Assembly (NCBI GenBank): GCA_035565575.1
Contig: DATMSE010000130.1
Coordinates: 1,107-65,106, forward strand
Direction: 5' to 3'
Source of the DNA: Xanthobacteraceae bacterium
GTDB lineage: Bacteria; Pseudomonadota; Alphaproteobacteria; Rhizobiales; Xanthobacteraceae
DNA length: 64,000 nucleotides
Position 1 is the first letter of the stretch. Every line of letters begins with the position of its first letter. Below are positions 33,777 to 57,219 of the stretch, piece after piece. The position numbers and the translations under genes were made by a program. The notes under the pieces are model-generated. The model was not told where the DNA came from. It worked only from the letters and a program-made list of their open reading frames with translations, and made no database searches.

Positions 33777-33795
33777 TGCCGCCTCCGGATCTGCC

Positions 33796-34638
33796 TCAGG
33801 CTCCGTCCTGACCGAGCAGCTTGCGCAGGCCGACATAGCCCTGCTGCTGTTGGGTCCAGTTGCGGCCGCCGATTACGCCGCCGTCGATCACCAGATCGGC
33901 GCCATTGATGAAGGACGACTCGTCGCTTGCCAGAAACACCGCCGCATGGGCGATGTCGTCGGGAATGCCGGCGCGCGGGATCGGCTGCGCGGACTTGAAC
34001 AGAGCCGCGAGCGTCTCCGCCTTCTTGTCGGCAGCGCCGGTTTCGACACCGAGCGCCTTGGCAAGAATGCCGGTGGCGATCGCACCGGGGGAAATGCTGT
34101 TGACGCGAATCCCGGCCTCGCCGAGCTCCATCGCCACGCATTTGGTGAAGTGGATCACCGCCGCCTTGGCAGCGCCATAGACCAGCGACGAGGAATAGCC
34201 ACCAAGATGACCCGCAATGCTGCCGTTGTTGATGATGCTCCCGGAGCCTTGCCGGCGCATATGCGGCGCGGCGTGCTTCATGCCGAGCATGACGCTGCGC
34301 ACCAGCGTCGCCATCGCCGCGTCGAACTGCCCGACGTCGAGCCCTTCGATGCCGCCGGTCTGCGCCGGACCGCCTGCATTGTTGAACAAGCAGTCGAGGC
34401 GGCCGAAGCGTGCGACTGCGAGCCCGATCAGCGCTTCGACCTGAGCTTCGTCGGTGACGTCGGTCTGCTTGAAGATACAATTGTCGCCGAGCTTCTTCGC
34501 CAGCGCCTCGCCTTCGTCGCTCCGCCGCCCGGCCGCGACCACCTTGGCGCCCTCCGCAACGAAGATTTCCGCAGTTCGCCAGCCGATGCCGCTGGTTGCG
34601 CCGGTGATCACCGCCACCTTGCCGTCGAGCCGTCCCAC
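33796..34638 (-). CDS. SDR family oxidoreductase
   Basis: TGATSGIG cofactor motif and YGAAK catalytic motif. Confidence 0.9.
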   Translation of the reverse strand: MGRLDGKVAVITGATSGIGWRTAEIFVAEGAKVVAAGRRSDEGEALAKKLGDNCIFKQTDVTDEAQVEALIGLAVARFGRLDCLFNNAGGPAQTGGIEGLDVGQFDAAMATLVRSVMLGMKHAAPHMRRQGSGSIINNGSIAGHLGGYSSSLVYGAAKAAVIHFTKCVAMELGEAGIRVNSISPGAIATGILAKALGVETGAADKKAETLAALFKSAQPIPRAGIPDDIAHAAVFLASDESSFINGADLVIDGGVIGGRNWTQQQQGYVGLRKLLGQDGA

Positions 34639-34865: not shown

Positions 34866-35639
34866 TCAGCGTTCGGCGAAGGCCTTCTCGACCACGAACT
34901 GACCCGGCTCGCCGTGATTGCCTTCGACGAAGCCGCGCTCCAGCAGCAGCGCGCGCGTATCGACCAGGAGAGCGGGGCTGCCGCACATCATCACGCGGTC
35001 ATGCTCGGCATCGAGTTCGGGCAAGCCGATGTCGCTGAACAGTTTGCCGGACGTCATCAGGTCGGTGATGCGGCCGCGGTTGCGAAACGGGTCGCGCGTC
35101 ACCGTCGGATAATAGATCAGCTGATTGCGGATGTACTCTCCGAGAAAATCGTGTTTCGGCAGCGTCTCGGTGATCATCTCGCCATAGGCGAGCTCCTTGA
35201 CGCGACGGCAGCCATGCAGCAGCACCACCTTCTCGAAGCGCTCATAGGTCTCGGGATCTTTGATGACACTGAGGAACGGCGCGAGGCCGGTGCCGGTCCC
35301 AACCAGATAGAGGTTACGGCCGCTATGCAGATTATCGATCACCAGCGTGCCGGTGGCCTTGCGGCTGACGATGATCTGATCGCCTTCCTTGAGGTGCTGC
35401 AGGCGCGAGGTGAGCGGACCGTCCGGCACCTTGATGGAGAAGAACTCAAGGTTCTCTTCGTAATTGGCGCTGGCGACGCTGTAGGCGCGCAGCAGCGGCT
35501 TCTCGCCCACCTTCAGACCGATCATCGTGAACTCGCCATTGCGGAAGCGGAACGACGGATCGCGGGTGGTGGTGAAGCTGAAGAGGTTGTCCGTCCAGTG
35601 ATGAACGCTGAGGACGTTCTCGTAGTTGAAATTGCTCAT
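34866..35639 (-). CDS. fpr: ferredoxin--NADP(+) reductase
   Basis: Bacterial Fpr pattern (VLSVHHWTDNLFSFTTTRD, RAYSVAS, GTGLAPF, C-terminal VVEKAF). Trimmed to MSNFNYEN (ATG 35639). Confidence 0.9.
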   Translation of the reverse strand: MSNFNYENVLSVHHWTDNLFSFTTTRDPSFRFRNGEFTMIGLKVGEKPLLRAYSVASANYEENLEFFSIKVPDGPLTSRLQHLKEGDQIIVSRKATGTLVIDNLHSGRNLYLVGTGTGLAPFLSVIKDPETYERFEKVVLLHGCRRVKELAYGEMITETLPKHDFLGEYIRNQLIYYPTVTRDPFRNRGRITDLMTSGKLFSDIGLPELDAEHDRVMMCGSPALLVDTRALLLERGFVEGNHGEPGQFVVEKAFAER

Positions 35640-35736
35640 CGGTTGAGGTCCATAACCGTTTGTGCGTCGCAAAAATCCGGGGGCAGAAATGATGCCGAAT
35701 GTGACGGAAGCGTGGCGGTTGCGTGCGCCGATATTG

Positions 35737-35831: not shown

Positions 35832-37031
35832 ATGTCGCACGGCGAGCCGCAGGGAAACGTCAATTCCGGGAAGTTGGTCGTTCGCAACATCGGACTGGTT
35901 CTAAGCGGCGCCATCGAAAATCCAATCCTGGATGCCGATACCATCATCGTCGAGAACGGGCTGATCACTGCCGTCGGCCGCGCCAAGGATGTCGATACCG
36001 AGGGGGCGACCTCCGTGATCGATGCCAATGGCATCACGGTAACGCCGGGCCTGATCGACAGCCATGTCCACCCCGTCGCCGGCGACTGGACGCCGCGGCA
36101 GAGCCAGCTCAACTGGATCGACTCCAGCCTCCACGGCGGCGTTACCACCATGATCTCCGCGGGCGAAGTCCACACACCCGGCCGCCCCAAGGACATCACC
36201 GGCCTCAAGGCGATGGCGATCTTCGCGCAGCGTGCGTTCGATGCCTTCCGCCCGAGCGGCGTCAAGGTGCTCGCCGGTGCGCCGGTGATCGAGAACGGCA
36301 TGGAAGAGGAAGACTTCAAGGAGATGGCCGCCGCCGGCGTGCGCTGGCTGGGCGAAGTCGGGCTCGGCAGTGTCAAGGATGGACCGACGGCGCGCAAGAT
36401 GGTGGCCTGGGCCCGCAAATACGGCATGAACAGCACGATTCATACCGGCGGTCCGTCGATCCCCGGCTCCGGCCTGATCGACAAGGACGTCGTGCTGGAA
36501 GCGGACACCGACATCGTCGGTCACATCAACGGCGGCCACACCGCGCTTCCGGACGGGCAGATCCGTTGCATCTGCGAGGGCTGCAAGCGCGGTCTCGAAC
36601 TGGTGCACAACGGCAATGAACGCTCCGCGCTCTATACGCTCCGGCTGGCCCGCGAGATGAACGATCTCGGCCGCATCATTCTCGGCACCGACGGGCCGGC
36701 GGGCTCCGGCGTTCAGCCGCTCGGCATCCTGCGCATGATCTCGATGCTGTCCTCGCTCGGCGAGGTGCCGGCCGAAATCGCATTCTGCTTCGCGACCGGC
36801 AATACCGCGCGGATGCGTGCGCTCGACTGCGGGCTGATCGAAGTCGGCCGTGCCGCCGATTTCGTCTTCATGGATAAAGCGCAGCACTCATCCGGCAAGG
36901 ATATTCTGGAAAGCGTGCGGCTCGGCGACCTTCCCGGCGTCGGCATGACCGTGATCGGCGGCATCGTGCGCAGCCAGCGCAGCCGCAACACGCCGCCCGC
37001 CGCCAAGATACCGACCATTGTAATGGGATGA
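35832..37031 (+). CDS. enamidase-like metal-dependent amidohydrolase
   Basis: 399 aa. Amidohydrolase HxH (GLIDSHVHPVAGDW). Length and opening (VVRNIGLVLSG...IIVENGLITAVG) recall the enamidase subgroup. GGGAG RBS. Confidence 0.7.
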   Translation: MSHGEPQGNVNSGKLVVRNIGLVLSGAIENPILDADTIIVENGLITAVGRAKDVDTEGATSVIDANGITVTPGLIDSHVHPVAGDWTPRQSQLNWIDSSLHGGVTTMISAGEVHTPGRPKDITGLKAMAIFAQRAFDAFRPSGVKVLAGAPVIENGMEEEDFKEMAAAGVRWLGEVGLGSVKDGPTARKMVAWARKYGMNSTIHTGGPSIPGSGLIDKDVVLEADTDIVGHINGGHTALPDGQIRCICEGCKRGLELVHNGNERSALYTLRLAREMNDLGRIILGTDGPAGSGVQPLGILRMISMLSSLGEVPAEIAFCFATGNTARMRALDCGLIEVGRAADFVFMDKAQHSSGKDILESVRLGDLPGVGMTVIGGIVRSQRSRNTPPAAKIPTIVMG

Positions 37032-37196: not shown

Positions 37197-37655
37197 CTAT
37201 CGCAGCTTGGCGAGCAGCGCGACGAACACGTCGCGTTCCTTCGCCGTCAACGGCGCCAAAGTCTCTTCCGTCACCTGCAACGCACTGGGCGCCGTCTTCT
37301 CGACCATCGCCTGCCCCGCGCGCGTCAACTTCACCAGCAATCGCCGTCCGTCGCGCGGATCGGGCCCGGTCTCGGTCAGTCCCCGCGCTGTCAGCCGATC
37401 GATCACGCCTTTGATCGTCGCGACATCCATCGCAGTCAGCCGGCCGAGTTGGTTCTGCGAGCAAGGTCCGGCCTCGGCCAGCTTCGACAACGCCGCCCAT
37501 TGCGTCGTAGTCAGACTGGCGCCGATGGCAGCGGTGAAGATCGCGGTATGACGCTGCGAAACCTGGCGTAGGATGAAGCCGACTTGCTCGTCGAGAATGT
37601 AAGAGGCCGGCTCGCGTGGCGCCACCTTAGCTTTTGCAGATGGCTTTTTCGACAT
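37197..37655 (-). CDS. MarR family transcriptional regulator (last gene of the hnr-like operon)
   Basis: 152 aa with a MarR winged helix (LTTTQWAALSKLAEAGPCSQNQLGRLTAMDVATIKGVIDRLTARGL...DPRDGRRLLV). Confidence 0.88.
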   Translation of the reverse strand: MSKKPSAKAKVAPREPASYILDEQVGFILRQVSQRHTAIFTAAIGASLTTTQWAALSKLAEAGPCSQNQLGRLTAMDVATIKGVIDRLTARGLTETGPDPRDGRRLLVKLTRAGQAMVEKTAPSALQVTEETLAPLTAKERDVFVALLAKLR

Positions 37656-37711: not shown

Positions 37712-38416
37712 TCACATTGCGAGATGAGCATCGCGAATATCCGGCCGGGCATCAAGATCGGCCATCGTCCCGTTGAAGCAGATGCGGCCGCGCTCGATGA
37801 TGTAGCTGCGGTCCGAAATCAGCCGCGCGAAATGCAGGTTCTGCTCGGACAGAAGGATGCTCAAGCCTTCCTTCTTCATCGTAAGAATGGCATGCGCCAT
37901 CTGCTCGACGATTTTTGGCGACAGGCCCTCCGACGGTTCGTCCAGCAACACGAGTGAGGGATTGCCCATCAAGGTGCGGGCGATGGTCAACATCTGCTGT
38001 TCGCCGCCGCTCATGCGGCCGCCGGCGCGGTTACGCATTTCCGCGAGGTTGGGAAACAGTTCGAACAGCTTGTCCCGGCTCCAATGCGGAGCGCCGGAAC
38101 GCGGCGGCTGCCGGCCCACCTCGAGATTCTCCTCGACCGTCAGATCGGTGAAGATGCGTCGCTCTTCCGGCACATAGCCAAGACCGGCACGGCCGATCGC
38201 ATGCGTGGGCTGCTTCGAGATATCATGCCCCTCGAACATGATGCGGCCGTCACGGCGCGCCACCAACCCGACGATGGAGCGGAAGGTCGTGGATTTTCCG
38301 GCGCCGTTCCGGCCAAGCAAGGCCACCACCTCGCCGGCACCGACCTCAAGATCGACATCGAACAGGATATGCGCCGGCCCGTAATAACTATTCAGCGCGG
38401 ACACCGAGAGCTTCAT
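37712..38416 (-). CDS. HAAT-family ABC transporter ATP-binding protein (LivF-like)
   Basis: Walker A GRNGAGKSTTF, signature MSGGEQQMLTIARTL, Walker B LVLLDEPSEGL. Confidence 0.92.
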   Translation of the reverse strand: MKLSVSALNSYYGPAHILFDVDLEVGAGEVVALLGRNGAGKSTTFRSIVGLVARRDGRIMFEGHDISKQPTHAIGRAGLGYVPEERRIFTDLTVEENLEVGRQPPRSGAPHWSRDKLFELFPNLAEMRNRAGGRMSGGEQQMLTIARTLMGNPSLVLLDEPSEGLSPKIVEQMAHAILTMKKEGLSILLSEQNLHFARLISDRSYIIERGRICFNGTMADLDARPDIRDAHLAM

Positions 38417-39204
38417 GCACCAGCCTCTTCCTGATGGCGCGCGTCATAGACCAGGCCTTCGCCCAGATAGATCGCCCGCACCTGCGGATCGCGCCGCACC
38501 TTTTCCGGCGAGCCTTCGGCGATCAGCGTGCCGCGATTGAGCACCAGAATGCGATCCGCGTGTTCGAACACCACGTCCATGTCGTGCTCGGTGAACAGCA
38601 CGCCGATCGACTGCTCGCGCGCGATTCGCGCCGTGAGCCGCATCAGTTCGATGCGATCGCGCGGCGCCATGCCGGCCGTCGGCTCGTCCATCAAGAGCAG
38701 CTTCGGTTGATTGGCAAGCGCGATGGCAAGCTCGAGCCGCTTGAGGTCGCCATAAGCCAGTTCGCCGCACGGCCGCTGCGCGTAGCCGTCGACGCCGACC
38801 AGAGAAAGCAGACGGTCCGCTTCGTCGCGCGCAAAACGCGGCGTCGACCGCCACATGTTGAATATCTCGCCGGCATGGGACAGCAGAGCCACCTGCACGT
38901 TCTCGCGCACCGTCATGGTGGGGAACGTCGCGGTAATCTGGAACGTGCGACCGACGCCGAGCCGCCAGACATGCCGCGGCATCTCGCCGGTGATCTCCCT
39001 ACCGAGCAATTGCACGCGGCCGCTGTCCGGCCGACGCTGGCCGTTCAGCATATCGAAGCAGGTGCTTTTGCCCGCCCCGTTCGGTCCGATCAGCGCGAGA
39101 ATTTCTCCGGCTGCCAACCGGAACGACACGCCGCGCACGGCATGCACGCCACCATAGGATTTGGTCAGGCCATCGACGGCCAGAAGGTCGGGACCCGCGG
39201 TCAT
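38413..39204 (-). CDS. HAAT-family ABC transporter ATP-binding protein (LivG-like)
   Basis: Trimmed to MTAGPDLLAVDGLTKSYGG (ATG 39204, ATGA overlap with the permease stop). Walker A GPNGAGKST. LAYGDLKRLELA signature. Confidence 0.9.
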   Translation of the reverse strand: MTAGPDLLAVDGLTKSYGGVHAVRGVSFRLAAGEILALIGPNGAGKSTCFDMLNGQRRPDSGRVQLLGREITGEMPRHVWRLGVGRTFQITATFPTMTVRENVQVALLSHAGEIFNMWRSTPRFARDEADRLLSLVGVDGYAQRPCGELAYGDLKRLELAIALANQPKLLLMDEPTAGMAPRDRIELMRLTARIAREQSIGVLFTEHDMDVVFEHADRILVLNRGTLIAEGSPEKVRRDPQVRAIYLGEGLVYDARHQEEAGA

Positions 39205-41090
39205 TCTGCGCCCTCGGTCTGCGCCGCACGCGGCGAAGCTCGTTTCATGAAGGACAGCCGCCCGCCATCGATCAGGCTCGCGAACGTGCCGACGATGCCT
39301 TTCGGAAATGCCACGACCAGCAGCACGATCACGGCGCCCATCACCAGCTTCGACATCTCGGTATAGCTGACCAGCCAGATGCTGAGCGCCTTGTAGACAA
39401 CGGCGCCGACCACCGCGCCGGATACAGTCTCGACGCCGCCCAGCAGCACCATCACCAGTGAATCGACCGAAAGCGCGATGCCGGCATTGTCGGGAAAAAC
39501 GCTGCCCTTCAGATATGCGAACAGCGCTCCGGCGATAGCGGCGAAGGTGCCGGCGATCACGAAGGCCGTCCATTGCACGCGCTTGCTGTTGATGCCGATC
39601 GCTTCGCTGCGCAGGCCGGAATCACGCGTCGCGCGCAACGCATAGCCGAACGGCGAGAACACCAGCACGCGTAGTGCCATCACCGACAGAGCCATGATCC
39701 CAAGCGCCAGCCAGTAGAACCGGGCCGGTGTCGCCACCAGCGCGGCCGGCCAGACGCCGAGGATGCCGTTGTCGCCGCCGGTGACCTCGACCCACTGAAA
39801 GGCGATCGACCAGACGATCTGTGCGAACGCCAGCGTCAGCATCGCGAAATAGACGCCGGACAATTGCACCGCGAACCAGCCGAACAGCACCGCGCCGAAC
39901 AAACCAAGCAATGGGCCGATCAGCAGACAGACAATCATCGGAAGACCGGCAAGCTTGGCAAGGAATGCGACGCCGTAGGCACCGAGCCCGAAGTAAGCGG
40001 CATGACCGAACGACGCCATGCCGCCGACCGACATCAGGAAGTGCAGGCTGACCGCAAAGATGACAAAGATCGCGATCTCCGCGCCGACGATCAGCGCATA
40101 GTTGCTGCCGAGCAGCGGCAGTGCCGCGGCCAGCATCAGCACGCCGAGTGACGCAAGCCGCGCCCGCGCCGACAGCGGCTGCCAGGGCCGCACTGCAAGG
40201 CCCGGTGTCTGCCGCGCTGCGGCTTCCGGTTTGCCGAACAGGCCCCATGGCCGAACGATCAGCACCACCGCCATCACGAGGAAGACGAGGATGATCGAGA
40301 TTTTGGGGAAGATGAGGATGCCGAACGCATTCAATTCGGATACCAGAACCGCCGCGACGAAGGCGCCGGTGATGCTGCCGAGACCACCGATGACGACGAC
40401 GACGAACACATCGACGATGATGCGCAGGTCCATCGTGTGATTGACCGCGTCGCGCGGAATCTGCAAGGCGCCGCCAAGCGCCGCGAGAAAGACGCCGAGC
40501 GCAAAGACGCTGGTGAACAACCATTTCTGATTGACGCCGAGCGCCGCCACCATGTCGCGATCCTGCGTCGCGGCGCGCACCAGCACGCCCCAGCGCGTGC
40601 GATGAAACAGCAGCCACAAGGCGCCGAGCACCGCGGGCCCGAGCACGATCAAGAGAACATCATAGGTCGGAATGGCCTGGCCGAAGAAATCGAGCGCACC
40701 GCGCAAGCCCGGCGCGCGGCGCCCTAACAGATCGTCCGGGCCCCAGATCAACACCGCGAGATCCTCGACGACGAGCGTCAGGCCAAAGGTGGCGAGCAGT
40801 TGGAACAGTTCGGGCGAACGATAGATCCGGCGCAGCAGCGTCATCTCCACCAGCACGCCGATCGCCGCAACGATAAGCGCGGCGAGAACGATGCCGCCCC
40901 AGAAACCGAGCGTGCCCGACATCCGCTCGGTCAGAGAGAAGGCGATATAGGCACCGAGCATATAGAAGGCGCCGTGCGCGAAGTTCACGATGCGCGTGAC
41001 GCCGAAAATGATCGACAGGCCGGACGCGACCAGAAACAGCGCGGCGGCGCTGGCGAGGCCGGAAAGAAACTGGACGACGTAAAAGCTCAT
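39201..41090 (-). CDS. fused LivH-LivM type ABC transporter permease
   Basis: One 629-aa ORF. The N-terminal half is LivH-like (VNFAHGAFYMLGAY). The C-terminal half is LivM-like (MASFGHAAYFGLGAYG). Confidence 0.88.
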   Translation of the reverse strand: MSFYVVQFLSGLASAAALFLVASGLSIIFGVTRIVNFAHGAFYMLGAYIAFSLTERMSGTLGFWGGIVLAALIVAAIGVLVEMTLLRRIYRSPELFQLLATFGLTLVVEDLAVLIWGPDDLLGRRAPGLRGALDFFGQAIPTYDVLLIVLGPAVLGALWLLFHRTRWGVLVRAATQDRDMVAALGVNQKWLFTSVFALGVFLAALGGALQIPRDAVNHTMDLRIIVDVFVVVVIGGLGSITGAFVAAVLVSELNAFGILIFPKISIILVFLVMAVVLIVRPWGLFGKPEAAARQTPGLAVRPWQPLSARARLASLGVLMLAAALPLLGSNYALIVGAEIAIFVIFAVSLHFLMSVGGMASFGHAAYFGLGAYGVAFLAKLAGLPMIVCLLIGPLLGLFGAVLFGWFAVQLSGVYFAMLTLAFAQIVWSIAFQWVEVTGGDNGILGVWPAALVATPARFYWLALGIMALSVMALRVLVFSPFGYALRATRDSGLRSEAIGINSKRVQWTAFVIAGTFAAIAGALFAYLKGSVFPDNAGIALSVDSLVMVLLGGVETVSGAVVGAVVYKALSIWLVSYTEMSKLVMGAVIVLLVVAFPKGIVGTFASLIDGGRLSFMKRASPRAAQTEGAE

Positions 41091-41208: not shown

Positions 41209-42432
41209 TCAATCCTTCGGACGTTCCTTGGCAACATCCTCCTCGCTCGGCAGGAAATCCTTGCCGTCGCGATAGACCGAATCGACCATCACGCCCTTGC
41301 CGTCCTTCACCGCAGTCTTGCCGACATAGGCACCGAGCGTCGCCTGATGATCGCTCTTGCGGAAGGTGATCTCACCGAACGGCGAACTCAGCTTGATGCC
41401 TTCGGCGGCTTCGATCAGCTTGTCGGTGTCGGTGCTGCCCGCTTTGGCGAGAATCGCGGCCGCGGCCTTGATCGCACCGTAACCGACGATCGAGCCGAGA
41501 CGCGGATAATCGTTGAACTTGGCCTGATAGGCTTTGAGGAACTTGTCGTGATCGGCGGTCTTGATGTCGTACCAAGGATAGCCGGTGACGATCCAGCCGG
41601 TCGGCGTCTCGTCCTTGAGCGGGTCGAGATATTCCGGCTCGCCGGTCAGGAAGCTGACCACCGACTTGCCCTTGAACAGGCCGCGCGTATTGCCTTCCCG
41701 CACGAACTTCACGAGATCCGGACCGAACTCGACGTTGAGGATGGCTTCTGGATTGGTGGCGGCGAGCGCCTGCACCACCGGGCCGGCATCGATCTTGCCC
41801 TGCGGCGGCCACTGCTCGCCGACCCACTGAACGTCCGGGCGCTTCTTCGACAGCAGCGTCTTGAACACGGCGACCGCGGACTGGCCGTACTCATAGTTCG
41901 GCGCGACGGTAGCCCAGCGCTTCGCCGGGAGCTTTGCCGCCTCATCCGCCAGCATCGCCGCTTGCATATAGTTCGAAGGCCGCAACCGGAACGTATAACG
42001 ATTGCCTTTCGTCATCGTCATCGCGTCGGTCAGCGGCTCGGCGGCCAGGAAGAAGACTTTCTTCTGCTTGGCGAAGTCGCTGACCGCGAGGCCGATATGC
42101 GAGAAGAAGGTGCCAGTCAGCATCACCACCTTCTCGCTCGAGACCAGTTCGTTCGCAGCGGTCACCGCATCCGCCGGCTTGCCGTTGTCGTCCTTGGAGA
42201 TGACGAGGAGCTTCTTGCCGTTGATGCCGCCGGCGGCGTTGACCTCCTCGAGCGCAAGCTGCCAGCCCTTGCGATACGGTTCGGTGAAGGACGGCAAGGC
42301 GGAATAGCTGTTGATCTCGCCGATCTTGATTTCGTCCTGCGCCAGCGCGCCCGTGGTCATGACACCAGTCGTCATCGCGGCCGTTGCCAGCCCGGCCAGC
42401 ACGATGCCGAGAATCCCACTCTGTCGTCGCAT
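41209..42432 (-). CDS. Liv/HAAT-type periplasmic substrate-binding protein
   Basis: Signal peptide MRRQSGILGIVLAGLATAAMTTGVMTTGALA, then a type I PBP fold (IKIGEINSYSALPSFTEPY). Confidence 0.88.
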   Translation of the reverse strand: MRRQSGILGIVLAGLATAAMTTGVMTTGALAQDEIKIGEINSYSALPSFTEPYRKGWQLALEEVNAAGGINGKKLLVISKDDNGKPADAVTAANELVSSEKVVMLTGTFFSHIGLAVSDFAKQKKVFFLAAEPLTDAMTMTKGNRYTFRLRPSNYMQAAMLADEAAKLPAKRWATVAPNYEYGQSAVAVFKTLLSKKRPDVQWVGEQWPPQGKIDAGPVVQALAATNPEAILNVEFGPDLVKFVREGNTRGLFKGKSVVSFLTGEPEYLDPLKDETPTGWIVTGYPWYDIKTADHDKFLKAYQAKFNDYPRLGSIVGYGAIKAAAAILAKAGSTDTDKLIEAAEGIKLSSPFGEITFRKSDHQATLGAYVGKTAVKDGKGVMVDSVYRDGKDFLPSEEDVAKERPKD

Positions 42433-42546
42433 TCCATCCTCCACTGTTGGAAGGGACAGTCGTCCCTACGGTGCATCTCCGTCCATCCACTTGTAGCCGA
42501 TGGGATGGTTCGAAGCAGTCCTAAATTTCAGGCAGAGCGATCTTGA

Positions 42547-43131
42547 TTAACGCAAGCCGTCTTCGCCCTTGATCTCCGAATGCTTGAGGCCGCCGACGCG
42601 CGGCAGCGGGCGGCCGCTGTCGGTGACGGCGACGGCGACCATGATCTCGCCCGCGCGCGGAGCATCGTTGATCTGCACTTCCATGCCATCGAAGTGGCTG
42701 CGCACGAAAGCTGCGTCTTTATGCCCCAGCGGAATATCGAGCACGGTGCCGAGACCGCCGCGCTTCTTCGACGACGGAATCAGTGCAGCGCCTTTGGTCA
42801 GCACCTTGCGAAACGGTGCGCCGAGTTTCGGATGCAGGATCGCGGCAGCATGTTCGAGTTCGCCATTCTCGCCGACCGCGGCGGCCTTGCCATAGCTCTG
42901 CACATGGGCGCCATCGATGCCGAGCGCCGCGACGGCGCGCTTGGCCAGCAGATCGCCGAGCTCTTCGCCGATATCCATCAGCGGCGACAGATCATCGACA
43001 TACTGTCCCGCGAACGGATTTTCGATCACGGCCACGGCGGCCGCGCGACGCGTCGGCGGGTTCACCGCATGACCGCCTTCCTGCAAGGTTTCCTCGACCA
43101 CGGTCATGATCTTGCGAATTCGAGCGCTCAT
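42547..43131 (-). CDS. DUF1185 ('amino acid synthesis', PF06684-like) protein, paralog B
   Basis: 194 aa and clearly paralogous to the upstream gene (shared NPFAG.YV.D, YGK.A..G..GELEH, VRSHFD.MEV, RVGGLK.SEIKG.DGLR). ATGA overlap with the upstream stop. Confidence 0.8.
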   Translation of the reverse strand: MSARIRKIMTVVEETLQEGGHAVNPPTRRAAAVAVIENPFAGQYVDDLSPLMDIGEELGDLLAKRAVAALGIDGAHVQSYGKAAAVGENGELEHAAAILHPKLGAPFRKVLTKGAALIPSSKKRGGLGTVLDIPLGHKDAAFVRSHFDGMEVQINDAPRAGEIMVAVAVTDSGRPLPRVGGLKHSEIKGEDGLR

Positions 43132-43712
43132 CGCAGTCCATCCTGTCCCTTGATCTCGCTGGCCTTCAATCCGCCGACGCGCGCGTGAATCCGCGAGCCG
43201 GTGGTCATCACCAGCGCCAGCAGCAACTCGTCGGCACGCGGCGCGTCGACAATCCCGACCTCCATCGCATCGAAGTGCGAGCGCACATACGATGCATTGA
43301 TGTGCGTCACCGGCACGTCGAGCCGCGTCCCCGGTCCGCCGACTTTCTTCGCCGACGGCACGATGGCTTTCGCTTCGCCGAGAATCTCGCGCATCGCGTA
43401 ACCGCCCGGCACGTGCCACAGCGCGCCGTGTTCAAGCTCGCCGGCCGAGCCGATGATGGCACCCTTGCCATAGCCTTGAATGCGCGAAGCATCGTTGCCG
43501 AGTGCTTTCAGCAGGCTGCGCGCCATCTCGACGCCGAGCGGATTCAGATCATCCATGAATCCGGCGATGTCTTCGACATAACGGCCGGCGAACGGATTGC
43601 GGATCACCGCGAGCGCCGCGCCACGAAACAACGGCTGCGCCGGCGGCGGGCCGCCTTCGTGCAGAATTTCCTCGATGATGATGACACGCTTGCGAAGGAC
43701 GACTTCAGGCAT
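43128..43712 (-). CDS. DUF1185 ('amino acid synthesis', PF06684-like) protein, paralog A
   Basis: 194 aa. See paralog B. Its start overlaps the UPF0280 gene end by 8 nt. Confidence 0.8.
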   Translation of the reverse strand: MPEVVLRKRVIIIEEILHEGGPPPAQPLFRGAALAVIRNPFAGRYVEDIAGFMDDLNPLGVEMARSLLKALGNDASRIQGYGKGAIIGSAGELEHGALWHVPGGYAMREILGEAKAIVPSAKKVGGPGTRLDVPVTHINASYVRSHFDAMEVGIVDAPRADELLLALVMTTGSRIHARVGGLKASEIKGQDGLR

Positions 43713-44619
43713 CGATCAGATTTCCGGTTGGCGCGATAACCGCGCGTGAATGCGACAGGTCGAATGCGCGCGAATGAGATGGCGCGACGATCTGCATTTC
43801 GCCTTGCAGACAGAGCGCAGCGCCTTCGACGAGGCCGCGCGACAGCAGTTCGCGCGCGAAAGCCGCCCCCGCATCCAGCGCCATCGTGACTTCGTCATAT
43901 GTCAGCGGCGCGACCTCGCGGGTGACGAGACGCTCGCCGAGATCGCTGTCGGGTTGAATCTCGCATGCCGGCACGCGCAGGATTCCGGGATGATCCGGCA
44001 GATCGACGGCGTTGGCGATCATCGTCGCAGCGGCATCGGCTTGCGACGCGGTGCGCGCGAGAACGGTGACGGCATCGGCGATGCCGAGCGAAAAGCTGCG
44101 GCCATGGCGGCCGCTGGTGGCGACGCCGCGCACCGCGCTATCGGCATCGATCACCGTCTTGCCCGCAAGCGTCGGCGGATCGATATGCGCGACCAATCCG
44201 ATCGTGAACTGTTGGCCAGGTGCAAGATGCAATGCGATGTCGCCGCCGTTATTGACATAGGCGCGATCGAGCGTTGCGGCCCTGATCATTGCGCCAAGAA
44301 TCTCTTCGGCGACCGCGCCGGCCACCGCCGCCATCGGCGTGATGAAATGGGTCTCCGCGAACGGCGCGACGGCGCCATGCATGCGCCGCGCGACCACGCC
44401 TTTCAGGCTCGGGAATCTTGCGGCAGCACGGCGGCGCAATTCGGGCAGCTCGCCACAAAGCTTATCCAGCAATCCGGTGAAGGATTCCGCCGCCGCCGCG
44501 TAGGCGATCTCGATCGCGGCGCGGTCGCCGCATGCCTCGATCACCAGATCGATGGGGCCGTCCTGCAGGTGCAGACGGCGGCCGTCCGGCAACAACGCGA
44601 TTTGCGGGCGGCGCATCAT
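43705..44619 (-). CDS. UPF0280 family protein (ApbE-superfamily-like)
   Basis: 304 aa. The pattern ...FITPMAAVAGAVAEEI...VNNGGDIAL... recalls UPF0280/COG2122. ATGA-type overlap with the upstream stop. Confidence 0.65.
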   Translation of the reverse strand: MMRRPQIALLPDGRRLHLQDGPIDLVIEACGDRAAIEIAYAAAAESFTGLLDKLCGELPELRRRAAARFPSLKGVVARRMHGAVAPFAETHFITPMAAVAGAVAEEILGAMIRAATLDRAYVNNGGDIALHLAPGQQFTIGLVAHIDPPTLAGKTVIDADSAVRGVATSGRHGRSFSLGIADAVTVLARTASQADAAATMIANAVDLPDHPGILRVPACEIQPDSDLGERLVTREVAPLTYDEVTMALDAGAAFARELLSRGLVEGAALCLQGEMQIVAPSHSRAFDLSHSRAVIAPTGNLIDA

Positions 44620-46091
44620 TGCGGCCTGTCCTTTTTCGGCGGCGCGGGTGCGTTGCGCACCTCGGTGTCGCGCGTGAGCGACGACAGCGGGCGCACATAA
44701 TCCATGTGGCCGCCGAGCGCGGCGTAATCATCGAGCCGCATGGTGAATTCGATCGGCGCCACCAATGCCGGCGTCGGCACATAGCCAAACGCGCCGGCGG
44801 GCATCTGCGTCACATCGACCATGAAGGTGATGCCGCCGCCCGGCCAGACATAAACCGGCGCGCCGCCGCTGGTCACCGAGGTGAGCGCCTCCTTCACCGA
44901 GCGCGTCAGCCGCACCGGATTGTCGGTGACGCCGGCGCGCAGCGATCCGCCGGCGCCGCCCATGAACAGCACGGTGCACAGCGCCGGTTCGCAATTCTCC
45001 TGAATCCGCTCGACCGATTGCTGAAGATTCTCCGGCAGCGGCTTCTCCACCGGCTGCAAACGCTCGTCGAGTTCAAAATAGGCGTAGTGTTCGCCGGTGG
45101 TCGATACCATCAGCATCCGCAGCCCAGGCTTCGCCACCTTGGGATTGAACGGGCCGAGCACGGTGAGCGGATCGGAAATCTGCGTGCCGCCCCAGCCGGT
45201 GCCGGGCTCGGCGACCTGGAAGTAACGGCCCGGCGTCGAACGCCGGCCTTTCATCTTGATGCCGGTCTCGGGAATATCGAGCAGCTTGCCGGCCTGATGT
45301 TCCGACAAGACGCCGGTGATGTGATCGTCGACCACGACGACCTCGTCGACCTTGCCCTGCCACTGCTTGGCGAACATGCCGATGGTGGCGGAGCCGCAGC
45401 CGACGCGCATCCGCACTTCCGGCACGCCGTTGACGATCGGCGGCTGCCCCGCCTGCACCACAACCGTCGCGCCGCCGTCGATGGTGAGCTCGACGGCCTT
45501 GCCGTTGCACAGGTCCATCAACGCGTCGCAGGTGACGCGGCCCTCTTTCTTCGAGCCGCCGGTCAAATGATGCACACCTCCGAGCGAGAGCATCTGCGAG
45601 CCGTATTCGCCGGTGGTGACGTGGCCGATGGCCTCGCCTTCCGCGCGCACCGTCGCGGTTTCCGGGCCGAGGAAGCGATCGGTATCGATCTTCACCTTGA
45701 CGCCGCAGTAACTGAAGATGCCTTCGGTCACCACGGTGACCATATCGACGCCATCGATCTCCGACGAGACGATGAACGGCGCGGGCTTGTAATCGGGATA
45801 GGTGGTACCGGCGCCGATGGCGGTGACCATCACGTCGCGGCCGGAGACCAGCTTGCCGTCCCACTCGCCGGATTTCTGGAACGGCACCACCGCGCCGCCT
45901 TGCGACACCGTGCGCTGAAGCACGACATGCGGATCGACGCGCACCAAGGTGCCGTTCTCGTTGGCATAGCGGTCGCACGCGCCGGTATTGCCGGGCTTGA
46001 TGTAGCACATCACCGGGCAGGCATCGCAGCGGATCTTGTCGCCGTCGGTGGCGCCCGCTGCTATCGGCGATCCTTCATTCATCATCGGCAC
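44616..46091 (-). CDS. 6-hydroxynicotinate reductase-like Fe-S protein
   Basis: 491 aa. N-terminal Cys cluster IRCDACPVMCYIKPGNTGACDRYAN (C-x2-C-x3-C-x9-C). I recognise this opening and length as the family annotated 6-hydroxynicotinate reductase in proteobacteria. GTG at 46091 (ATG 46085 is the alternative). Confidence 0.65.
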   Translation of the reverse strand: MPMMNEGSPIAAGATDGDKIRCDACPVMCYIKPGNTGACDRYANENGTLVRVDPHVVLQRTVSQGGAVVPFQKSGEWDGKLVSGRDVMVTAIGAGTTYPDYKPAPFIVSSEIDGVDMVTVVTEGIFSYCGVKVKIDTDRFLGPETATVRAEGEAIGHVTTGEYGSQMLSLGGVHHLTGGSKKEGRVTCDALMDLCNGKAVELTIDGGATVVVQAGQPPIVNGVPEVRMRVGCGSATIGMFAKQWQGKVDEVVVVDDHITGVLSEHQAGKLLDIPETGIKMKGRRSTPGRYFQVAEPGTGWGGTQISDPLTVLGPFNPKVAKPGLRMLMVSTTGEHYAYFELDERLQPVEKPLPENLQQSVERIQENCEPALCTVLFMGGAGGSLRAGVTDNPVRLTRSVKEALTSVTSGGAPVYVWPGGGITFMVDVTQMPAGAFGYVPTPALVAPIEFTMRLDDYAALGGHMDYVRPLSSLTRDTEVRNAPAPPKKDRPQ

Positions 46092-46218: not shown

Positions 46219-46348
46219 CGATTTTGGGCGGGGGCGCGAAAACTGTCAAGCGGTCCGATGCGCAATTTCTTCGCACCTGCCGATCCTTTGCGCTGCAATG
46301 CCGACCCGCGCCGGGCAATGGGCAGTGCAGCATCGGCGCGTCCTTGCA

Positions 46349-46548: not shown

Positions 46549-46581
46549 GGGGTTGTGGGTCCCCGCCTGCGCGGGGACGAC
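46549..46581 (+). repeat. REP-like hairpin repeat, family A (GGGGTTGTGGGTCCCCGCCTGCGCGGGGACGAC)
   Basis: A 33-nt unit identical to the reverse complement of 61683-61715. Core hairpin is GTCCCCGC-CTGC-GCGGGGAC. Ends 10 nt before the nicA ATG. Confidence 0.8.
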
Positions 46582-46590
46582 GCTGAGAGC

Positions 46591-47121
46591 ATGACAAACG
46601 CTGAGCGCATGACTTCAGACCCGATCCGCCTGACCGTCAATGGCACGAGCCACAGCATCGCGGCGGCGGCGGATACGCCGCTGCTCTACATCCTGCGCAA
46701 CGATCTCGAACTCAACGGGCCGAAGTTTGGCTGCGGGCTCGGCGAATGCGGCGCGTGCACGGTGCTCGTCGACGGCATGGCCGCGCGATCCTGCGTGCTG
46801 CCGCTCGCAGCCTGCGCCGGGCGCAGCATCACCACGCTGGAAGGGCTCGGCTCGCGCGAGCGGCCGGACCCGCTGCAGGCGGCATTCGTGACGCATCAGG
46901 CGGCGCAGTGCGGCTATTGCCTCAACGGCATGATCATGACGGCGAAGGCGCTGCTGCTGCGCAATCCCCATCCGTCCGAGCAGGAGATCAAGCAGGCGCT
47001 GCGCTACAACCTGTGCCGCTGCGGCACGCATGTGGAAATTCTCGCCGCGGTGATGACGGCCGCCGGCCATCATGTCGCGCGCGATCACGCGGCGGGAGGC
47101 GCGGCCGATGCGACGCACTGA
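46591..47121 (+). CDS. nicA: (2Fe-2S)-binding small subunit of a Mo-hydroxylase (NicA/IorA-like)
   Basis: Two [2Fe-2S] motifs (CGLGECGACTV and QCGYCLNGMI). Start at ATG 46591 or 46609. Confidence 0.8.
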   Translation: MTNAERMTSDPIRLTVNGTSHSIAAAADTPLLYILRNDLELNGPKFGCGLGECGACTVLVDGMAARSCVLPLAACAGRSITTLEGLGSRERPDPLQAAFVTHQAAQCGYCLNGMIMTAKALLLRNPHPSEQEIKQALRYNLCRCGTHVEILAAVMTAAGHHVARDHAAGGAADATH

Positions 47122-50725: not shown

Positions 50726-51898
50726 ATGTCCACGCCGCCTGTCCTCAGCCATGCCTTTCGCATCTGTTTTCTGCTCGCCGCAATCTGGGCGGCGCTGGCG
50801 GTGCCGCTGTGGCTGATGACCTATGCCGGCATGCTGACCATCGCCGAGGTTTACGGCGGCGTCGCCTGGCATGCGCATGAGCTGATCTTCGGCTATGCCG
50901 CGCTGGTGATCTGCGGCTTCCTGTTCACCGCGATCCCGAACTGGACCGGACGGCTGCCGGTGGCGGGATTTCCGCTGCTGTCGCTGGTCCTGATCTGGGT
51001 GCTGGGACGCATCGCGATGCTGTGCGCGGCCGGAATCGGTCCCGCCGTCGCCGCGCTGGTCGACCTGACGTTTCTCGGCGCGGTGCTGGCGGTGGCCGGG
51101 CGCGAGATCGTCGCCGGCAAGAACTGGCGCAATCTGCGGGTGCTGGTGATGGTGGCCTGGCTGTTCGCCGCCAACGCCGCATTCCATGCCGCCGTGCTCG
51201 GCGGCGCGATGCTCGACGTCAGCCTGCGCGGCGCGGTCGGCGCGCTGGTGGCGCTGATCACCTTGATCGGCGGGCGGCTGACGCCGAGTTTCACCCGCAA
51301 TTGGCTGGTGAAACGCGATCCCGCGCGCCTGCCCGCGCCGTTCGACGCGCTCGACGCCGTCGCCATCGGCACCGGCGTGGTCGCGCTGCTGGCGTGGGTG
51401 ATTGCACCGGATGGGCAGACCACCGCCGCGCTGGCGGCGCTTGCGGCATTGCTTCTGATCGCGCGGCTGGCGCGCTGGCGCGGCACCCTCACATTTGCCG
51501 AACCGCTGCTGGCGATCCTGCATCTCGGCTATGCCTTTGTCCCGCTCGGCTTCGCGCTCGCCGCCGGCCATGCGCTGTGGCCGGACGCGATTCCCGCCGC
51601 CGCCGTGATTCACGCCTGGACCGCCGGCGCGGTCGGGGTGATGACGCTGGCGGTGATGACGCGCGCGAGCCTCGGCCATACCGGCCACGCGCTCACCGCG
51701 GGCCCGGCGACGACGTCGATCTATCTCGCGATCCTCACCGCCGCGCTGCTGCGCGTCGTCGCGCCATTCGCCGTCGACTGGCAGCATGCGGCGCTCAACC
51801 TGTCCGGCGCGGCCTGGACGCTGGCATTCCTGCTGTTCGTCGCAAGCTACGGCCCGATCCTGTGCACGGCGCGCCGGACAAAACGCGCGGAAGCCTAG
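50726..51898 (+). CDS. nnrS: NnrS family heme/copper membrane protein
   Basis: 390-aa polytopic protein. The opening (FRICFLLAAIWAALAVPLWL ... WHAHELIFGY) is typical of NnrS. Confidence 0.88.
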   Translation: MSTPPVLSHAFRICFLLAAIWAALAVPLWLMTYAGMLTIAEVYGGVAWHAHELIFGYAALVICGFLFTAIPNWTGRLPVAGFPLLSLVLIWVLGRIAMLCAAGIGPAVAALVDLTFLGAVLAVAGREIVAGKNWRNLRVLVMVAWLFAANAAFHAAVLGGAMLDVSLRGAVGALVALITLIGGRLTPSFTRNWLVKRDPARLPAPFDALDAVAIGTGVVALLAWVIAPDGQTTAALAALAALLLIARLARWRGTLTFAEPLLAILHLGYAFVPLGFALAAGHALWPDAIPAAAVIHAWTAGAVGVMTLAVMTRASLGHTGHALTAGPATTSIYLAILTAALLRVVAPFAVDWQHAALNLSGAAWTLAFLLFVASYGPILCTARRTKRAEA

Positions 51899-52590
51899 CC
51901 CTCCTCCGCCACCTCGGTCAGCGCGCCGGGCTTGGCGATCACCACGCGGCGGCGGCCGCTGTCGATGATGCCGCGCCCCTCCCATCCGCTCAAGGTGCGG
52001 CTGACGGTGTGCAGCGTGGTGCCGGTCATCTCCGCCAGATCCTGCCGCGACAGCGGAAACGCGATCTCGACGCCGCGCGCGGTGCGCCGTCCCGCCTGCT
52101 GCGCCAGCCGCAGCAAGGTGTGGGCGATGCGCCGCTCGACCTTCTCGGTCGCGAGTTCGCGCAGCCGCAATTGCAGGTCGCGATAGCGCTGGCCCAGCAG
52201 CGCCGCGGCATTGATCGCGATCGCCGCATGCCGCGTCATGGCCTCGCGCAGCACCGCGGCCGGCATCCCGATGAGATGGCTGTCGTCCACCGCCGTCACC
52301 GCGCCGGGATGCACCTCGCCGCCGGTCAGCGCCGCATAGCCGACCACGTCGCCGGGCCCGAGATAGCGAATGATGATCTGCTGGCCGTCCAACGTGGACT
52401 GGGTGACGCGCAGCCGCCCGACGGCGACGACATAGCAGGTCGTGACGGTGTCTTCCTGCTGGAATACGGTCTCGCCCGCCGCAAATTTGCGGCGGAATGA
52501 CGTCGCCTGCAGTTGGCGCAGCACGTCGGCCGGCACGCCACGAAACAGTTCACTGCGGGCCAGGATGTCGATATCGGGAGATTCGACCAT
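51895..52590 (-). CDS. nnrR: Crp/Fnr family transcriptional regulator, NnrR/Dnr-like (no Fe-S Cys cluster)
   Basis: Trimmed to MVESPDIDILARSELFRGV (ATG 52590). cNMP-type beta-barrel plus HTH (RQDLAEMTGTTLHTVSRTL). No N-terminal Cys motif. Adjacent to nnrS, with TTGCG-N4-CGCAA boxes nearby. Confidence 0.7.
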   Translation of the reverse strand: MVESPDIDILARSELFRGVPADVLRQLQATSFRRKFAAGETVFQQEDTVTTCYVVAVGRLRVTQSTLDGQQIIIRYLGPGDVVGYAALTGGEVHPGAVTAVDDSHLIGMPAAVLREAMTRHAAIAINAAALLGQRYRDLQLRLRELATEKVERRIAHTLLRLAQQAGRRTARGVEIAFPLSRQDLAEMTGTTLHTVSRTLSGWEGRGIIDSGRRRVVIAKPGALTEVAEEG

Positions 52591-52808
52591 ACCGCTGCTT
52601 TCGCGCCATCCCCTGCTATCGCCGGCCAAACCGCGAATCTGCCGCCACCCTCGCGAATCCGGCCATATTCCGGGCCCGACCTCCGCAGCCTGTCGCGGCA
52701 CGCCGGTGACGAATGTCAGAACCAACACCACACTAGCCGCGCCCGCAACTTCGCCGCATAGTGCGGGCATCGAATCGCGGGCCTGCCGGGCGGCATATTG
52801 CTGGTTAT

Positions 52809-52822
52809 TTGCGTTGGCGCAA
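52809..52822. promoter_or_regulatory. NnrR/Dnr-type box TTGCG-TTGG-CGCAA in the nnrR/aox divergent region
   Basis: Perfect dyad TTGCGTTGGCGCAA. Its centre is 66 nt before the aox ATG. Confidence 0.6.
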
Positions 52823-52881
52823 AGACCGTGACGCCGGCCTGCGCCACTGCCAGACTGGCGCCGCGTTTTCAGGGAGCTGCG

Positions 52882-53538: not shown

Positions 53539-53567
53539 GTTTTCGTTTCACGAACATCCTATCCATC

Positions 53568-53657: not shown

Positions 53658-53694
53658 CTGAGAAATACGTGCCAGGAAAACTCTTTGCTTCAAC

Positions 53695-56303: not shown

Positions 56304-56308
56304 CGACG

Positions 56309-57210: not shown

Positions 57211-57219
57211 GATCACATC

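Follow-up and report, generated by a model that had tools for sequence, protein, structure and literature searches.

The nicotinate fermentation cluster of Eubacterium barkeri, described in 2006, reportedly contains hnr, ena, hgd, ndhFSLM and mgm, and the purified E. barkeri 6-hydroxynicotinate reductase (Hnr) is said to be a single polypeptide with a covalently bound flavin, one [2Fe-2S] cluster and two [4Fe-4S] clusters. Here we analysed a 64,000-nucleotide (nt) stretch of DNA from a Xanthobacteraceae bacterium (contig DATMSE010000130.1 of assembly GCA_035565575.1; the whole stretch is called the window; G+C content 63-66%), with ~160 other loci for comparison, and focused on a block of four minus-strand genes that encode an Hnr-like protein, a UPF0280 protein and two paralogs, A and B, of the DUF1185 family (PF06684, now named AA_synth). 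A nicotinate cluster described in 2012 from a Bradyrhizobiaceae strain is conserved in Azorhizobium caulinodans (AZC_2790-2804), Bradyrhizobium (blr3818-3830) and Rhodopseudomonas; the same paper gives the Bradyrhizobiaceae ortholog of Hnr as 42% identical to the E. barkeri enzyme and notes conserved proteins whose function is unknown, together with a putative nicotinate ATP-binding cassette (ABC) transporter (PMC3511419). An earlier reading of the window from its letters alone (the sequence-only reading) had named the four-gene block as the most likely undescribed biochemistry in the window, a fair judgement except that the module had already been flagged in that paper; the finding is real and only partly new. 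In the literature searched, we found no description of the near-obligatory, phylum-wide pairing of Hnr with UPF0280, of the ApbE-like but non-canonical nature of UPF0280, of the split behaviour of the DUF1185 paralogs or of the apparent orphan fold of Hnr. The four genes, with lengths in amino acids (aa), are as follows.

44616-46091, minus strand: Hnr-like open reading frame (ORF), 491 aa from a GTG start
43705-44619, minus strand: UPF0280 ORF, 304 aa
43128-43712, minus strand: DUF1185/AA_synth paralog A, 194 aa
42547-43131, minus strand: DUF1185/AA_synth paralog B, 194 aa

Compared with the E. barkeri-type cluster, the window has the same first three steps (hydroxylase, Hnr and enamidase), and the UPF0280 and DUF1185 kinds of gene are present in both. 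The window differs in that its Hnr lacks the 2x[4Fe-4S] domain, its hydroxylase is NicAB-like with cytochrome c domains and not of the NdhFSLM type, it has a gene for a ferredoxin-NADP(+) reductase (FNR) and two DUF1185 copies instead of one, and it has no Hgd or B12-mutase branch.

Proteins 80-100% identical to the Hnr-like protein, from Xanthobacteraceae, Afipia and Bradyrhizobium, carry the NCBI name "6-hydroxynicotinate reductase"; in the 100% identical database protein, the start lies 3 codons downstream of the GTG used here. Over the catalytic core, the window protein shares 42-46% identity with ferredoxin-type homologs of Clostridia, including an Eubacterium aggregans-like protein, and E. 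barkeri Hnr was not found by name among the best 120 matches to the E. aggregans protein. Among 1.8 billion cluster representatives, a search returned distant full-length relatives of 34-47% identity, most of which have an extra N-terminal 2x[4Fe-4S] ferredoxin domain, 2x(CxxCxxCxxxCP), whereas the window Hnr is of the short (proteobacterial) type without this domain. Within the core, the motif CxxCxxxC-x9-C (C22, C25, C29 and C39) is invariant and Cys232 nearly so. Pfam and NCBIfam scans of the 491-aa protein gave no family, and a sequence search of the PDB gave no match. An AlphaFold2 (AF2) model derived from 58 sequences that include both types (predicted local distance difference test (pLDDT) 83, predicted template modelling (TM) score 0.80) had no Foldseek match in the PDB at E<=1e-3 (best TM ~0.1) and therefore offers no fold-based clue to the flavin site; judged from this model, Hnr appears to be an Fe-S flavoenzyme with an orphan fold. 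In two natural fusions of ~970 aa (P0248 and P0253), Hnr is joined to a 2x[4Fe-4S] ferredoxin domain and a GltD-like NAD(P)H/FAD oxidoreductase, the latter being inserted inside the Hnr sequence in P0248; these fusions point to NAD(P)H-driven forms of the reductase in anaerobes.

The genome scan, which used one GTDB genome per species and an alignment of five Hnr sequences, kept 80 loci from Desulfobacterota, Clostridia (including E. aggregans, Acetobacterium bakii and Lutispora), alpha-proteobacteria and one Acidobacteriota metagenome-assembled genome, and their six-frame ORFs were searched with the window proteins. The gene immediately downstream of Hnr is UPF0280 in 44 of 50 ferredoxin-type loci and in 21 of 24 short-type loci, together 65 of 74 genome loci, which span four phyla (Desulfobacterota, Bacillota, Pseudomonadota and Acidobacteriota), and UPF0280 is found anywhere in the locus in 49/50 and 23/24, respectively. 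A reverse test anchored on UPF0280 in metagenome contigs, for which a diverse alignment was used yet only close proteobacterial relatives (59-86% identity) were returned, placed Hnr directly upstream of UPF0280 in all 57 of 57 loci. UPF0280 is thus an almost obligatory partner of Hnr, and the co-occurrence proposed as a check by the sequence-only reading holds. The DUF1185 family is less evenly distributed: an AA_synth gene is present in 33 of 43 ferredoxin-type and 21 of 23 short-type loci, and two copies are never seen in the former and occur in 9/23 of the latter. In the metagenome set, an AA_synth gene directly follows UPF0280 in 64 of 65 loci, and in 57 of these 65 loci that gene is B. 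A plasmid tblastn search found Hnr on 26 records, and the order Hnr-UPF0280-AA_synth-AA_synth was seen on plasmids of a Comamonadaceae beta-proteobacterium, Sagittula and Sulfitobacter. On a contig nearly identical to E. aggregans, read through its precomputed Pfam labels, LysR stands first and then come Hnr, PF27030 (the Pfam family of UPF0280), an Hgd-type dehydrogenase, NdhF/S/L/M-type subunits, a membrane protein, enamidase, PF06684 and a B12-binding mutase; this is an E. barkeri-type fermentation cluster that contains both families, with DUF1185 placed after ena and not after hnr.

Two exceptional arrangements of the pair were seen. One 108-kb metagenome contig carries an in-frame Hnr-UPF0280 fusion of 764 aa (P0115, a single cluster with one member), which may be a real fusion or a stop codon lost at the ATGA junction. 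In Lutispora (L020) and Clostridiales PH28_bin88 (L027), UPF0280 lies ~3 kb downstream of Hnr and neither enamidase nor DUF1185 is found within 10 kb; this is perhaps a different Hnr-like system.

The overlapping stop and start codons that the sequence-only reading reported for the four consecutive genes of the window were found exactly where it placed them: ATGA at 44616-44619 (4 nt), ATGcctGA at 43705-43712 (8 nt) and ATGA at 43128-43131 (4 nt). Overlaps of 4, 8 and 4 nt are also seen in two Roseobacter loci (the Sagittula and Sulfitobacter plasmids), gaps of 3-26 nt separate the same genes on the Comamonadaceae plasmid, and two downstream ABC ATPase genes of the window likewise overlap by 4 nt. 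Stoichiometric co-expression, which had been read from these overlaps, did not follow, because they are ordinary operon architecture, with gaps of 3-52 nt in other taxa. As a proof of stoichiometry, the three overlaps were ruled out, since overlaps are common and these are not conserved outside the alpha-proteobacteria; they denote co-transcription and coupling.

The explanation that we favour, tentatively and with a confidence somewhat short of even, is that UPF0280 matures Hnr by flavin insertion and that the DUF1185 proteins act on the product of ring opening, so that the four coupled genes would form one expression unit but two functional units; the gene identities, their coupling, the phylogenetic co-occurrence, the fold and the conservation of motifs are shown, and every one of the biochemical activities is inferred. 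Hnr would be the catalytic 6-hydroxynicotinate reductase, the proteobacterial form of which would have lost its 2x[4Fe-4S] ferredoxin domain. UPF0280 would bind an ADP-containing flavin nucleotide with Mg2+, and the flavin would then be inserted or covalently fixed in Hnr, making UPF0280 a cytoplasmic maturation factor dedicated to Hnr and not a stoichiometric subunit. The DUF1185 proteins would be small oligomeric accessory enzymes or chaperones that work beside ring-opening hydrolases, namely enamidase or HyuAB in nicotinate catabolism and TgnD in trigonelline catabolism.

The assignment of the 304-aa protein to UPF0280 within the ApbE superfamily, already made by the sequence-only reading, is borne out by the NCBIfam model NF003322 (412 bits against a cutoff of 290, residues 2-284) and by the ApbE fold of its structural model. 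PF27030 (AbpE_bact) is precomputed on homologs 66-99% identical to the window protein and on the Eubacterium-type neighbour of Hnr. The Hnr-linked UPF0280 proteins of anaerobes match NF003322 over the full length, but below its cutoff. Against the other three UPF0280 subfamily models, NF003321/3/4, the match of Hnr-linked members is confined to the central 120 residues, and the Hnr partner is accordingly a single subfamily within a wider family. With the AF2 model (pLDDT 85), Foldseek retrieved DVU1097 of Desulfovibrio vulgaris (PDB 2O34; Pfam DUF375, function unknown) at E 6e-11 and then solely ApbE, Ftp and FmnB structures (E 2e-5 to 1e-3; TM 0.35-0.49, ~0.45; prob 1.0), whereas the sequence profile matched only 2O34 in the PDB and no ApbE. 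DVU1097 is the best match of UPF0280 in both sequence (E 4e-7 to 6e-10) and fold, but it is only 21-22% identical, has 250 aa and lacks the N- and C-terminal parts of the window protein; presumably, it belongs to one of the shorter (238-250-position) subfamilies NF003321/3/4.

Across 71 Hnr-linked UPF0280 sequences, G125-G126-D127, T168-S169-G170, G173-R174-S175 and D195/T199 are invariant. When the profile of these sequences was aligned with Escherichia coli Ftp (strain MG1655) using hhalign (prob 80%, E 1.4e-5), G125/G126 fell on G212/G213, T168-S169-G170 on T253-S254-G255 and D195/T199 on D301/T305; we take the aligned GG, TSG and Asp-x3-Thr elements of Ftp/ApbE to be those that bind the nucleotide and Mg2+. 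UPF0280 thus resembles ApbE/Ftp (PF02424; PDB 4XDR, 6NXI, 4XGV and 7ESA) in its fold and in these motifs, and also in being encoded by a dedicated gene that adjoins one for a flavoprotein reported to hold covalent flavin. It differs in that it is ~10-17% identical to these proteins, lies below the Pfam threshold, has families of its own (PF27030 and NF003322), lacks the histidine of the 'HxIDP' segment, is cytoplasmic and has a client without an [ST]GA[ST] motif. Its cytoplasmic location is deduced from the lack of a signal peptide: on direct reading, the N-terminus MMRRPQIALLPDGRRLHLQDGPID shows no hydrophobic signal segment or lipobox, whereas E. coli Ftp starts with a lipoprotein signal. 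UPF0280 is therefore predicted, from its motifs and its modelled fold, to work like an ApbE-type nucleotide-binding maturation factor without being a canonical ApbE. Because E. barkeri Hnr is reportedly a single polypeptide with covalent flavin, a transient role in maturation is likelier than that of a subunit.

Both DUF1185 proteins of the window match PF06684 over profile positions 1-175 (B with 249 bits and A with 235 bits, cutoff 27), and because the match in B begins at residue 5 of the 194-aa form, a 290-aa ORF that starts at an upstream GTG is an over-extension. A shares 51% identity with B over 190 aa (E 8e-62) and matches the solved members PDB 3BYQ (E 3e-62) and 2QTP (E 3e-45). That the two are full-length DUF1185 paralogs, both ending in RVGGLK.SEIKG.DGLR, is thus confirmed, and HMM (hidden Markov model) searches on PF06684 and UPF0280 (COG2122) gave the families as they had been named. 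The heteromer that had been read from the shared C-terminal motif did not stand, because RVGGLK.SEIKG.DGLR also occurs in single-copy homologs; as a sign of a heteromer, the motif was rejected as family-wide. All 80 DUF1185 sequences share 18 invariant residues (five Arg, three His, three Glu, one Lys and others), among them the His cluster and charged residues of the cavity at the dimer interface (H95, H100, H146, E92, E94, K83, R7, R108, R144, R174 and R178), and both A and B look functional because both retain them all.

A neighbor-joining tree of the family contains a TgnF clade, a clade A made up of proteobacteria only and a clade B that includes the single-copy genes of anaerobes (Desulfobacterota and Clostridia). 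DUF1185 is single-copy in all anaerobic nicotinate clusters. Among 51 metagenome relatives, two copies (A present) were found in 7 and B only in 44; most relatives from soil have B alone. As one element of the explanation favoured above, and held with the same reserve, B would be the ancestral enamidase-associated copy, orthologous to the single copy of anaerobes, and A a later proteobacterial duplicate able to work alone. An obligate A/B heteromer is not supported by these comparisons of gene content, which include the 44 of 51 relatives with B only and loci with A only. The A-only loci (Pleomorphomonas, Sinorhizobium medicae plasmid pSMED01, L070, L086 and L087) have oxoprolinase-like HyuA/HyuB and lack enamidase in 5 of 5 cases. 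Where DUF1185 is detached from the Hnr block, it adjoins the enamidase gene (ena) downstream (L014, L023, L030, L033, L037, L045, L063, L080 and L092) or alternatively lies ahead of the hydroxylase genes, as in some nicotinate clusters, and in Roseovarius A follows UPF0280 while B follows enamidase.

Several proteobacterial Hnr clusters have hydantoinase/oxoprolinase-like HyuA/HyuB and no enamidase, and in Pleomorphomonas the Hyu genes are translationally coupled to an A-type DUF1185. HyuA/HyuB genes were located in L003 (13026-16861), L002 (1519-5258), L005 (7821-11713), L070, L072, L086, L087 and L091, and HyuAB looks to be an alternative, ATP-dependent means of opening the tetrahydro-6-oxonicotinate lactam. 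The S. medicae WSM419 locus (L005, pSMED01 92529-107110) encodes an A-type DUF1185 66% identical to A of the window and has no Hnr or UPF0280; its neighbours are two nucleoside hydrolases, an isochorismatase-family (nicotinamidase-like) protein, MarR and HyuAB, and the locus may be a catabolic cluster for nicotinamide riboside or nicotinamide.

These distributions bear on the possibility, which we regard as unlikely, that all four genes encode one multi-subunit reductase, with Hnr as the Fe-S and substrate subunit, UPF0280 as a permanent flavin subunit for electron entry and an A3B3 hexamer of DUF1185 as a structural or electron-transfer scaffold replacing the lost ferredoxin domain. Such an assembly sits poorly with E. 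barkeri Hnr, which was reportedly purified as a single polypeptide, and with the majority of relatives, which have only B. The tight translational coupling of the four genes, the constant order Hnr-UPF0280-AA_synth in proteobacteria (64/65) and the in-frame Hnr-UPF0280 fusion would all fit it, as would the hexamers with conserved interfaces formed by solved DUF1185 members (PMC2954203). Yet ferredoxin-type Hnr, which retains its own ferredoxin domain, is equally accompanied by UPF0280 and one DUF1185, the DUF1185 proteins have no cofactor-binding motif or Cys cluster and work in pathways without Hnr, and the fusion is a single one-member cluster that may reflect a lost stop codon. The sequence-only reading had offered the DUF1185 pair either as extra reductase subunits or as the missing enzyme acting on 2-formylglutarate. 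The first role is unlikely: elsewhere, as in the tgn clusters, the family works in the absence of Hnr, and its copy number varies freely (single in anaerobes, B only in 44/51, A only in some loci); the second direction is the better supported.

Outside nicotinate clusters, the plasmid search found the DUF1185 family on 388 plasmids, compared with 26 for Hnr, and the family is not reductase-specific. Four low-identity (33-40%) loci from rhizobial, Acinetobacter and Thioclava plasmids were inspected out of the 388, and 4/4 were tgnF-tgnD-tgnA-tgnB-tgnC clusters, in which the DUF1185 gene lies directly before, or overlaps, the gene of the alpha/beta-hydrolase (TgnD) that releases the formyl-dicarboxylate. 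A Burkholderia locus has the order DUF1185-hydrolase-flavin monooxygenase-NIPSNAP-succinate-semialdehyde dehydrogenase, and in a Hydrogenophaga locus DUF1185 is flanked by genes for a beta-hydroxyacid dehydrogenase of the Hgd family and a 2-hydroxyacid dehydrogenase. TgnF of Acinetobacter baylyi ADP1 belongs to PF06684, is 33-37% identical to the window paralogs and shares all 18 invariant residues, its pathway opens a pyridine-3-carboxylate ring to an enamine/formyl-dicarboxylate, and its gene is coupled to that of the hydrolase acting on the ring product. It differs in forming a separate clade, in its C-terminus and in the absence of Hnr and UPF0280 from its clusters, and its reported effect is on succinate-semialdehyde dehydrogenase: TgnF of the trigonelline (N-methylnicotinate) pathway is reported to stimulate TgnE-dependent oxidation of succinic semialdehyde (Perchat et al. 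2018, as cited in PMC7913881). The solved members BB2672 (3BYQ) and SPO0826 (2QTP) have a fold like that of Bacillus chorismate mutase and are hexameric with conserved interfaces, a cluster of conserved His residues and a cavity of 1000 cubic angstroms; the cluster, H93/H98/H144 in BB2672, corresponds to H95/H100/H146 in the window paralogs. A role in amino-acid synthesis was proposed for them from gene neighbourhood only (PMC2954203) and is at odds with the contexts found here.

In the favoured explanation, DUF1185 is placed at the enamine/formyl-dicarboxylate step because the enamidase/HyuAB and TgnD steps share this chemistry. Enamidase or HyuAB, like TgnD, would release an enamine, 2-(aminomethylene)- or 2-(methylaminomethylene)-dicarboxylate, which would hydrolyse to a configurationally labile and decarboxylation-prone 2-formyl-dicarboxylate that the next dehydrogenase must capture. 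The substrate of DUF1185 in nicotinate catabolism would be 2-(aminomethylene)glutarate or 2-formylglutarate, and its role might be deamination, keto-enol tautomerisation or protected hand-over to the next dehydrogenase.

That the DUF1185 proteins are instead 2-formylglutarate decarboxylases, yielding glutarate semialdehyde for an aerobic glutarate branch as TgnF would decarboxylate 2-formylsuccinate to succinate semialdehyde, is in our estimate less likely still than the multi-subunit reductase. TgnF does stand beside a hydrolase that yields CO2 and succinate semialdehyde and stimulates the coupled dehydrogenase, the Azorhizobium pathway runs via glutarate (PMC3511419), and the conserved His/Glu/Arg cluster of DUF1185 would suit such an activity. 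In the fermentation-type cluster, however, the gene follows ena and is accompanied by Hgd and a B12-dependent mutase, so that the carboxyl group must stay as 2-formylglutarate is converted to 2-(hydroxymethyl)glutarate; a pure decarboxylase role is unlikely because DUF1185 is kept in a cluster that proceeds in this way, and Pfam scans found no aldehyde dehydrogenase in the cluster of the window.

Several observations weigh against the explanation of flavin insertion by UPF0280 and an accessory role of DUF1185 in ring opening. A regular-expression scan of Hnr found no [ST]GA[ST] flavinylation motif (nor did reading of the A, B and UPF0280 translations by eye); its nearest strings, AIGAGTT (93-99) and GSAT (233-236), have Thr residues that are not conserved across the family, and the only Thr invariant in the widest Hnr alignment is T450 in 'EFTM'. 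Cys232 could hold an autocatalytic cysteinyl-flavin, in which case a transferase would not be needed. The Pfam ApbE model (PF02424) scores 18.6 bits on UPF0280, below its cutoff of 25.6, in a partial match to residues 100-177. In the hhalign comparison, the Ftp segment SHVIDPQTGRPIEHN ('SHVIDPQTG') is shortened to 'SLGIAD', and the 'HxIDP' histidine, presumably the equivalent of the essential His257 of Vibrio cholerae ApbE, is replaced by Leu178 (Thr in the consensus). Purified enamidase alone reportedly gives ammonia and (S)-2-formylglutarate, and a DUF1185 helper is therefore not essential in vitro. In proteobacteria, AA_synth adjoins UPF0280 in 64/65 loci and ena lies elsewhere in the cluster, so that gene order alone would equally fit an accessory of the reductase. 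HcdD, the DUF1185 member of a coumarin cluster, reportedly had no effect in vitro (PMC7913881). The proposal that UPF0280 installs flavin on Hnr, made in the sequence-only reading, nonetheless comes out strengthened: the near-universal adjacency, the ApbE fold and the GG, TSG and Asp-x3-Thr motifs speak for it, and the missing ApbE histidine, the missing acceptor motif and the sub-threshold Pfam score against it.

Least probable of all is a scheme in which UPF0280 is unrelated to flavin and serves delivery or repair of another cofactor (for example, an Fe-S cluster) or binding of a pyridine substrate, while DUF1185 proteins are small-molecule sensors or regulators tied to an amino-acid-type ABC transporter. 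In its favour stand the missing ApbE histidine and acceptor motif, the environmental sensing and link to branched-chain amino-acid transport proposed by the structural genomics (JCSG) paper (PMC2954203) and the ABC transporter that follows the DUF1185 pair in the window; against it stand an invariant Asp/Thr metal dyad and invariant GG/TSG nucleotide-binding motifs, a pair that stays with Hnr-UPF0280 when a Rieske gene or MarR displaces the transporter, and many anaerobic loci that have DUF1185 and in which no liv-type substrate-binding protein was detected within 10 kb. Membership of the DUF1185 pair in the transporter was likewise rejected: a Rieske gene in Sagittula, or MarR in Sulfitobacter S190, separates them, and the pair therefore travels with Hnr-UPF0280 and not with the transporter.

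A stronger version of the favoured explanation, which we consider doubtful but less so than any of the alternatives above, is that PF27030/UPF0280 is a new cytoplasmic branch of ApbE that loads flavin into a single client, Hnr, through an acceptor site and a catalytic base other than those of the canonical Thr-in-SGAT/His mechanism, and that DUF1185 is a new class of enzymes acting on the enamine/beta-formyl-carboxylate produced by ring opening by enamidase, HyuAB or TgnD.

Around the four-gene block, the following features were identified.

46221-46249, minus strand: sigma-70-like promoter match (TTGACA-17-CAAAAT) upstream of the four genes, 10/12 consensus positions, from a consensus scan only and not evidence of function
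46555-47121, plus strand: NicA-like [2Fe-2S] subunit (Pfam), divergent from the block
to 50632, plus strand: NicB-like subunit with molybdopterin and three cytochrome c domains, 1186 aa (Pfam)
41209-42444, minus strand: liv-type ABC transporter substrate-binding protein (Peripla_BP_6, Pfam), after a 102-nt gap behind B
~39201-41090, minus strand: fused ABC permease (Pfam)
38413-39573, minus strand: ABC ATPase (Pfam; mechanical ORF, the true start being probably ~39200, judged by the permease stop)
37712-38416, minus strand: ABC ATPase (Pfam)
37197-37655, minus strand: MarR-family regulator, NicR-like (Pfam)
35832-37031, plus strand: ortholog of enamidase, which opens 1,4,5,6-tetrahydro-6-oxonicotinate (PDB 2VUN, E 4e-108, full length)
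34866-35672, minus strand: bacterial FNR (PDB FNRs, E 6e-118)
33796-34638, minus strand: short-chain dehydrogenase/reductase (SDR) oxidoreductase (Pfam)
33273-33836, minus strand: cupin (Pfam)

With hydroxylase, Hnr and enamidase, the window holds a complete upper nicotinate pathway. Molybdenum cofactor/2Fe-2S genes flank Hnr in most of the genome loci, and a setting with nicotinate hydroxylase and enamidase recurs in most of the 80. The hydroxylase of the window is of the aerobic Pseudomonas NicAB type, joined here to the reductive Hnr/enamidase branch, whereas the anaerobes compared use NdhFSLM-type subunits. The FNR gene adjoins Hnr in Comamonadaceae and Sagittula and is present in 5 of 25 short-type genome loci (L070, L075, L076, L080 and L086). 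An electron supply from NAD(P)H is suggested because the FNR gene lies in the cluster of proteobacteria whose Hnr lacks the ferredoxin domain, and electrons probably pass from NAD(P)H through this reductase to Hnr.

The same ABC transporter follows the four-gene module in the Comamonadaceae, Sagittula and Sulfitobacter loci, and MarR occupies the same place in the latter two. In Roseobacter nicotinate clusters, a Rieske aromatic-ring-hydroxylating oxygenase alpha subunit is encoded beside the ABC transporter (L002, 13529-14599; L004, 15309-16379). The SDR and cupin genes (33273-34638) are not conserved in most other loci; they possibly serve downstream steps, and their membership of the cluster is uncertain. 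Beyond the hydroxylase, 50726-61463 encodes NnrS, a 392-aa Crp/Fnr-type regulator with a long N-terminal extension, a pseudoazurin-like copper protein, a cbb3 oxidase (FixN/O/P), a DUF2189 membrane protein and a FixI-like P-type ATPase, and is an ordinary microaerobic respiration island. A 270-aa ORF at 9111-9923 (minus strand) has a third-position G+C of 0.86 and no Pfam family; the remainder of the window consists of unrelated housekeeping genes.

Hnr, a rare enzyme, reduces a pyridone ring; although known for decades, it has neither a Pfam family nor a solved structure, and the partner gene that stands beside it in essentially every genome examined is an obvious candidate for the acquisition of its covalent flavin. 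If this is true, ApbE-type flavin loading would reach beyond extracytoplasmic clients with the SGAT motif to include a cytoplasmic enzyme whose acceptor is different. To express the reductive nicotinate or 6-chloronicotinate pathway in a heterologous host, the UPF0280 and DUF1185 helpers would probably be needed. For PF06684, a widespread family, the name 'amino acid synthesis' is misleading; a link of the family to the labile ring-opening products of N-heterocycles would correct this annotation and would also explain the stimulation of the downstream dehydrogenase by TgnF.

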